From Escherichia coli (GTDB lineage Bacteria > Pseudomonadota > Gammaproteobacteria > Enterobacterales > Enterobacteriaceae): DNA of 64,000 nt. Every line of letters begins with the position of its first letter. Positions within the stretch are counted from its first letter, which is position 1. This document shows, in pieces, positions 57,893 to 58,076 of this stretch. A program made the position numbers and the translations under genes. The DNA is taken from assembly GCF_001677475.2 (NCBI RefSeq), contig NZ_CP015229.1. One strand, given 5' to 3'. The notes below the pieces were generated by a model. It was not told the origin of the DNA. It searched no databases and was given only the letters and a program-made list of their open reading frames with translations.

Positions 57893-57906
57893 TTGATACC
57901 GAACAA
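57893..57906. promoter_or_regulatory. Candidate FNR site in the dmsA promoter
   Basis: TTGATaccgAACAA matches TTGAT-N4-ATCAA in 9 of 10 positions; dmsABC is an anaerobic FNR-activated operon. Confidence 0.5.
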
Positions 57907-58076
57907 TAATTACTCCTCACTTACACGTAATACTACTTTCGAGTGAAAATCTACCTATCTCTTTGATTTTCAAATTATTCGATGTATACAAACCTATATA
58001 GCGAGCTGCTATAGAAATAATTACACAATACGGTTTGTTACTGGAATCAATCGTGAGCAAGCTTGAGTGAGCCATT

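Follow-up and report, generated by a model that had tools for sequence, protein, structure and literature searches.

The serS-dmsA intergenic region

The 238 bp between serS and dmsA (positions 57839-58076 of the window, the whole 64,000-nucleotide stretch of Escherichia coli DNA analysed here) form, with a probability of about 0.92, the regulatory region of the dmsABC operon, with the FNR, NarL and ModE control laid out below. The dmsA gene that follows carries a frameshift, which is real and lineage-specific. Control of dmsABC by FNR, NarL and ModE is already known, textbook E. coli regulation, established since the late 1980s and 1990s. The K-12 dmsA P1 promoter, with its FNR class II site at -41.5 and its repression by NarL, was reportedly the subject of work by Eiglmeier in 1989, Lamberg and Kiley in 2000, Bearson in 2002 and Myers in 2013.

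The serS stop codon ends at 57838 and the dmsA ATG lies at 58077. A 321-bp query around the intergenic region was matched in 5,425 of the 5,426 complete E. coli genomes; strain LHM10-1, in which the flanks are annotated as serS and dmsA, was 100% identical to the queried region. Compared with K-12 MG1655, the intergenic region differed at two positions only, 57992 (A here, G in K-12) and 58005 (G here, A in K-12). Neither difference falls in the FNR site or in an arm of the ModE-like palindrome: position 57992 is in the central spacer of the palindrome, where it is the sole K-12 difference inside the 24-mer, and position 58005 is just beyond it. The FNR site, the -10 hexamer and both NarL heptamers have the same sequence in the K-12 P1 promoter as here, as does the leader apart from these two SNPs. 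No functional difference between the two promoters is apparent; of the two strains, only the present one has the 1-bp deletion in the dmsA coding sequence. The coordinates and strings that the original prediction gave for its two motifs, an FNR-like site and a ModE-like palindrome, proved exact on direct reading of the sequence.

The window is collinear with K-12 except for one insertion of about 2.5 kb, and a Shigella-like, pseudogene-rich origin was rejected on these grounds. The insertion (19354-21901) lies between ybjP and ybjQ and holds a 600-aa ORF, annotated in other genomes as a pentapeptide-repeat protein. It was found in about 1,100-1,700 complete E. coli genomes, with an identity of at most 98.5% among the six best matches listed. 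The ftsK gene (50504-54337) is intact and about 50 codons shorter than in K-12, which corresponds to length variation of a repetitive linker.

The FNR binding site

The FNR binding site, TTGATaccgAACAA, occupies positions 57893-57906 on the plus strand, is centred at -41.5 of dmsA P1, as in class II activation, and is identical in K-12. The FNR consensus is an inverted repeat near TTGAT-N4-ATCAA, and 9 of its 10 positions are matched by TTGATACCGAACAA at 57893-57906. When the consensus TTGATNNNNATCAA was searched with at most one mismatch, three matches were found in the window, against 2.5 expected; by consensus count, the FNR motif alone is not above chance. The two other matches lie inside coding regions, according to coordinate mapping to K-12.

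We also built a position-weight matrix (PWM), for which the 63 ChIP-positive sites in Table S6 of Myers et al. served as the training set. With this matrix, the dmsA site scored 10.6 bits and ranked 9th of 63,987 positions; the weakest training site scored higher (11.8 bits). The top matches, TTGATTTAGGGCAA (33467-33480) and TTGATTTAGCGCAA (31281-31294), have the same sequences as the published ChIP-bound sites at aqpZ/ybjD and hcp, and serve as a positive control for the matrix. The second-best score in the window, 14.2 bits, was that of TTGTGTTAGATCAA in the ycaC-ycaD intergenic region (62808-62821). Its K-12 counterpart is TTGTGTTAGTTCAA, and the SNP present here makes a better FNR half-site. 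Published K-12 data give a modest anaerobic increase for ycaD and no FNR peak at ycaC-ycaD.

In the published analysis, the best PWM match under the dmsA peak had a PatSer ln p of -10.34, for a genome-wide prediction cutoff of -10.75, and dmsA is absent from the table of predicted sites (Myers et al., PMC3688515). The original prediction had held that a PWM score below threshold would speak against the site. The published score does narrowly miss the cutoff, but the same K-12 site is bound in vivo, so that the threshold is not decisive. In K-12, the FNR ChIP peak at dmsA was found by all four peak callers as well as in an earlier ChIP-chip study, and the site is listed at -41.5 in Table 1 of the same work, in the category "directly activated" (PMC3688515). 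Activation of dmsA was FNR-dependent when the wild type was compared with the delta-fnr strain, the sigma70 ChIP-seq peak at dmsA rose 14-fold, from 30.8 aerobically to 447.5 anaerobically, and the aerobic/anaerobic expression ratio of dmsA was 0.018 (K-12; PMC3688515). With an identical sequence in K-12 that carries a ChIP peak, sits at -41.5 and gives FNR-dependent activation, the FNR site of the original prediction was correctly called (PMC3688515). What lifts the site above chance is its 238-bp intergenic context, its fixed spacing to the -10, its conservation across genera and the K-12 ChIP data. Overall, the dmsA FNR site is real, although weak as a bare motif.

The core promoter, the NarL heptamers and the leader

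The -10 hexamer of dmsA P1, AATACT (57929-57934, plus strand), lies in the conserved block GTAATACT, with a conservation of 0.94. From the FNR centre plus 41.5 bp (the published position being -41.5) and the spacing to the -10, we infer a P1 transcription start at 57941 on the plus strand, which gives a leader of 136 nt. Relative to this start, the FNR site spans -48 to -35, the -10 spans -12 to -7 and the putative ModE operator spans +40 to +63. We assumed an offset of 777-778 bp between K-12 coordinates in U00096.2 and U00096.3, a figure uncertain by about 1 bp. With this assumed offset, the anaerobic sigma70 peak at 940,050 (K-12, U00096.2) corresponds to about 57945, 4 bp from the inferred start, and the centre of the FNR site (57899.5) is 12 and 31 bp from the two published peak centres.

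Two heptamers match the NarL motif TACYYMT exactly: TACTCCT at 57911-57917 (plus strand; -30 to -24), between the FNR site and the -10, and TACCTAT at 57952-57958 (plus strand; +12 to +18). Two exact heptamers in 238 bp compare with 0.42 per kb across the window. Flanking the core promoter as they do, these candidate NarL sites fit the published nitrate repression; NarL repression of dmsA is cited in a passage of PMC3688515.

A weak IHF-like match, AATCAAAGAGATA (57956-57968, minus strand; +16 to +28), has one mismatch to WATCAANNNNTTR. This stretch is poorly conserved outside Escherichia, and a coordinate-prefix search of the published IHF ChIP-chip table gave no entry near the dmsA leader. 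Within the leader, a candidate sense promoter, TTGATT-16-TATACA (57963-57990), has 8 matching positions out of 12 and extends into the left arm of the ModE-like palindrome. A full-text literature search for a published dmsA P2 start or for site sequences returned nothing useful.

At the upstream end of the region, the intrinsic terminator of serS is a hairpin, AAAAAGCGCC-TGCG-GGCGCTTTTTTT (57864-57886, plus strand). It has the form of a terminator whichever strand is read, and no other block between the two genes is as conserved. At the downstream end, the block GTGAGCAAGCTTGAGTGAGCCATT precedes the dmsA ATG (58053-58076, plus strand; conservation of 0.81) and contains the likely ribosome-binding region. 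A direct repeat, GTGAGCA...GAGTGAGCC, was observed at 58053-58073, just 5' of the ATG; it is conserved in all genera examined and presumably includes the ribosome-binding site. A simple promoter and terminator scan returned a single, chance-level candidate, TTGTCT-16-AATAAT; neither P1 nor the serS terminator was called. For P1, such a scan is uninformative because this promoter is activator-dependent and has no -35.

Conservation across the Enterobacteriaceae

To collect dmsA loci, the Tat-signal peptide of DmsA was back-translated and species-representative genomes were scanned with the resulting DNA pattern, which yielded 33 Enterobacteriaceae loci. All of these start with the expected ATG, and serS is directly upstream in most. 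The conserved islands in the alignment were the serS terminator, the FNR half-sites TTGA...CAA, the block GTAATACT, the palindrome and the pre-ATG block. Among 18 representatives, the whole region averaged 0.69 in column conservation, compared with 0.89 in the FNR half-sites, 0.90 in the arms of the palindrome and 0.94 in the -10.

Spacing is conserved as well. Of the 33 aligned sequences, 27 had a distance of 34.5 bp between the FNR centre and the last T of TAATACT; for the remaining six, automatic picking of the motif did not succeed. Both TTGA...CAA and the 34.5-bp spacing are kept across Escherichia, Citrobacter, Enterobacter, Lelliottia, Huaxiibacter, and one Enterobacteriaceae MAG. In most of the species examined, 90-92 bp separate the centres of the FNR site and the palindrome.

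The ModE-like palindrome

Positions 57980-58003 are occupied by CGATGTATACAAACCTATATAGCG, a 24-bp imperfect palindrome (CGATGTAT-ACAAACCT-ATATAGCG) whose centre falls at +51.5 relative to the inferred P1 start and which, as judged from its sequence, is a putative ModE operator. In K-12, palindromes of 24 bp were also read upstream of modA (CGTTATATTGTCGCCTACATAACG) and moaA (CGCTATATACATGATTACATAGCG), and we take both to be ModE operators. The dmsA 24-mer is in register with them, 14 of the 24 columns being invariant in all three. A consensus was derived from the K-12 modA and moaA palindromes only (CGYTATAT-N7-TACATARCG, 17 specified positions) and searched with at most three mismatches. The dmsA palindrome, with three mismatches, was the sole match in the window, for which 0.41 matches are expected by chance; the site counts on both strands, and two or more matches were obtained in 11 of 100 shuffles. 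The ModE-like palindrome is well above chance.

The same search in 70 kb of K-12 returned the homologous dmsA site only. In 256 kb around dmsA from the 33 species, every match was 56-100 bp upstream of the dmsA ATG. At least one match was found in each of the 32 species with upstream sequence, and none outside dmsA leaders in a total of about 390 kb.

The dmsA site shares with the K-12 operators of modABC and moaABCDE the architecture of a 24-bp palindrome, CGnTATAT-N8-AyATAnCG, but differs from them in its degenerate left arm, CGATGTAT, which is off consensus at two positions. The left arm of the moaA palindrome, CGCTATAT, is identical to the right arm of the dmsA site on the other strand. 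The consensus form of the left arm, CGTTATAT or CGCTATAT, occurs at the dmsA site of Enterobacter, Lelliottia, Pluralibacter, and Yokenella, and in most genera this arm comes nearer to the consensus than that of E. coli, which suggests that the CGATGTAT of E. coli is a slightly decayed version.

Position is a further difference. The modA operator overlaps the promoter and the transcription start, and represses. The dmsA site lies in the 136-nt leader, some 50 bp past the inferred P1 start. This is not a classical activator position, and yet ModE is reported to raise dmsA expression. On sequence logic, the published ModE footprint on dmsA would coincide with the 24-mer at 57980-58003. In the genome comparison, the K-12 dmsA string was TGTATACAAGCCTATATAG. 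The original prediction of a ModE-like site was right in kind: the palindrome is in register with those of modA and moaA and conserved across genera, and passages of PMC12096835 and PMC2266799 cite McNicholas 1998 for control of dmsA by ModE and molybdate.

A degenerate second ModE-like element, TGCTATAG-N8-ACACAATA, lies at 58007-58030, with 12 of the 17 consensus positions matched (mismatches counted by eye). In the alignment, this element is homologous to the well-formed second palindrome of Citrobacter. In many Citrobacter species, C. koseri and C. portucalensis among them, the dmsA leader has a pair of ModE-type palindromes at a distance of 31 bp, and in C. koseri the sequence CGTTATATAAATAACTACATAACG has no mismatch. 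In the C. freundii group, a near-perfect downstream palindrome is preceded by one that is decayed (CA for CG) or, in C. werkmanii and C. youngae ATCC, partly deleted. Set against the degenerate downstream remnant of E. coli, the tandem sites of Citrobacter look like the product of binding-site turnover.

Other readings of the conserved block

The conserved block, from the palindrome to the serS terminator, might be a minus-strand sRNA gene, STnc130, with the motifs belonging to the RNA or to its own promoter. Rfam family RF02084 ("STnc130"), which describes a predicted sRNA on the strand opposite to the dmsA promoter, does match positions 57852-57986 on the minus strand over its full length (140 bits versus a gathering score of 55; E about 1e-25); the terminator, FNR site, -10 and P1 start all fall within the match, as do 7 bp of the left ModE arm. 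Moreover, on the minus strand a U-run comes after the terminator hairpin and a -10-like TATATA/TATAGG lies inside the palindrome, and repression of such an RNA by ModE could account for the positive effect on dmsA.

We nevertheless consider this reading very improbable. In its source study, STnc130 was a prediction-only class V candidate, for which 0 cDNA reads were obtained whether or not Hfq was co-immunoprecipitated and the Northern entry is "nd"; a later paper still describes it as "putative". The structure in the RF02084 model consists of the serS terminator hairpin read backwards plus one two-pair element, and nothing else. A sigma70 scan at relaxed criteria gave no minus-strand promoter for STnc130, and an antisense promoter for this RNA, undetected in its source study, was rejected as a candidate. 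The region upstream of the putative STnc130 start is poorly conserved, and the islands of conservation correspond to FNR half-sites, -10 and ModE arms rather than to RNA helices. The strong STnc130 score is most simply explained by the conservation of the promoter elements. The family, which lies on the strand opposite to these elements and is without experimental support as an RNA, probably models the conserved promoter, together with the serS terminator on the wrong strand, rather than an RNA.

Less probable still, and only barely worth considering, is that the palindrome is an RNA hairpin of the dmsA leader, acting on translation or stability, and no protein operator. Being transcribed (+40 to +63), it could form an AU-rich stem of eight pairs with one mismatch, and the leader is conserved near the start codon. 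In the predicted fold of the leader, however, the palindrome is not used as a hairpin, and the fold itself is not significant (z = -1.5; 16 of 200 shuffles fold at least as well). No Rfam cis-regulatory family matched. Across genera, the arms keep the letters CGnTATAT/ATATAnCG, as at modA and moaA, without the compensatory changes of a stem, and at modA and moaA the palindrome lies outside any mRNA leader of the dmsA kind.

A chance resemblance without function, for one motif or both, could appeal to the chance-level FNR consensus count, the sub-threshold published score and the two off-consensus positions of the left ModE arm. ChIP data and phylogenetic footprint together effectively refute this reading: on the same sequence in K-12, published work shows that FNR occupies the site in vivo and that expression depends on FNR, the motifs and their spacing are kept across genera, and ModE-type consensus matches are restricted to dmsA leaders in about 390 kb.

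Regulation of dmsABC

In the reading that we retain, a regulatory region under FNR, NarL and ModE, FNR with its Fe-S cluster would bind TTGATaccgAACAA at -41.5 and recruit sigma70 RNA polymerase to the -10 AATACT in class II fashion; as a result of this FNR-dependent recruitment, transcription would start from about 57941 only without oxygen. FNR class II activation and NarL repression around the core promoter are straightforward. Molybdate-bound ModE on the operator at 57980-58003, that is, at +40 to +63 of the leader, would tie full expression of dmsA to the supply of molybdate. The anaerobic, molybdenum-dependent control put forward in the original prediction is borne out by FNR ChIP and expression data in K-12 and by cited ModE control (PMC3688515, PMC12096835, PMC2266799).

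How ModE would raise expression from within the leader is open to several readings, which we rank by inference in the order of leader-promoter block, architectural effect and antisense repression. Bound ModE might silence the weak leader promoter TTGATT-16-TATACA, so that expression would depend cleanly on FNR and P1; we hold this tentatively, at somewhat less than even odds. As a general explanation, it is weakened because the -35-like TTGATT is not conserved outside Escherichia. That ModE has an architectural effect on P1 seems rather unlikely, and an IHF-assisted form of this model is weakened by the lack of a nearby entry in the IHF ChIP-chip table.

More speculatively, and with a low probability, the leader operator may work as an "insulator", which would shut off transcription starting in the leader or running against it and thereby indirectly boost FNR-dependent P1. 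Its targets would be either the antisense STnc130, an RNA never detected, or a P2-like promoter in sense direction that overlaps the left arm, and the conserved 90-92 bp from the FNR centre would allow such a shut-off by ModE. On this proposal, the operator would have been duplicated in Citrobacter, with 31 bp, or about three helical turns, between the copies, and the second copy would have decayed in Escherichia. Part of this idea may already stand in McNicholas 1998.

The dmsA frameshift

In the window, dmsA (58077-60005, plus strand) is truncated to 642 aa by the loss of one A after position 59943 (GCGCG[A]CCCAC), and its C-terminal molybdopterin-binding part continues in another frame to 60520. 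The deleted A was identified by comparison with LHM10-1 and K-12, and its site is not a homopolymer run. The deletion was absent from 5,423 complete E. coli genomes, in which the best identity was 99.2% and the shortfall corresponded to a single gap. At least 13 contigs, from NCBI assemblies and sequencing runs independent of one another, encode the exact truncated product of 642 aa, with an identical promoter. Moreover, dmsA is the sole disrupted gene among the 54 K-12 genes in the window. Sequencing error was rejected as the cause of the frameshift on these two grounds, the recurrence of the same truncated protein and the integrity of the other genes; the frameshift is real and lineage-specific.

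The promoter, dmsB and dmsC are intact in the frameshifted strain, which fits a recent inactivation. The original prediction had called the inactivation recent, if real: its reality is established by the recurrence on at least 13 contigs, and its recent date agrees with the intact promoter, dmsB and dmsC.

Some of the strains with the frameshift carry a phage-type integrase gene and an adjacent HTH gene, which replace serS as the upstream neighbour. The junction corresponds to about 57860, at the serS terminator and just a few bp before the FNR site, and leaves the promoter unaltered. E. albertii shows the same sequence at its upstream junction. An integrative element may use the serS terminator as its attachment site.

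Significance

The finding is correct but ordinary, and carries little weight for discovery. It confirms that a reader without tools can recover true operators from raw sequence, and that a consensus or PWM threshold alone would narrowly reject an FNR site that is bound in vivo. It also flags the Rfam family STnc130 as a probable model of a promoter, not of an RNA. For the species itself, it adds a small genomic note: a natural E. coli lineage has lost DmsA and kept the dmsA promoter, dmsB and dmsC.
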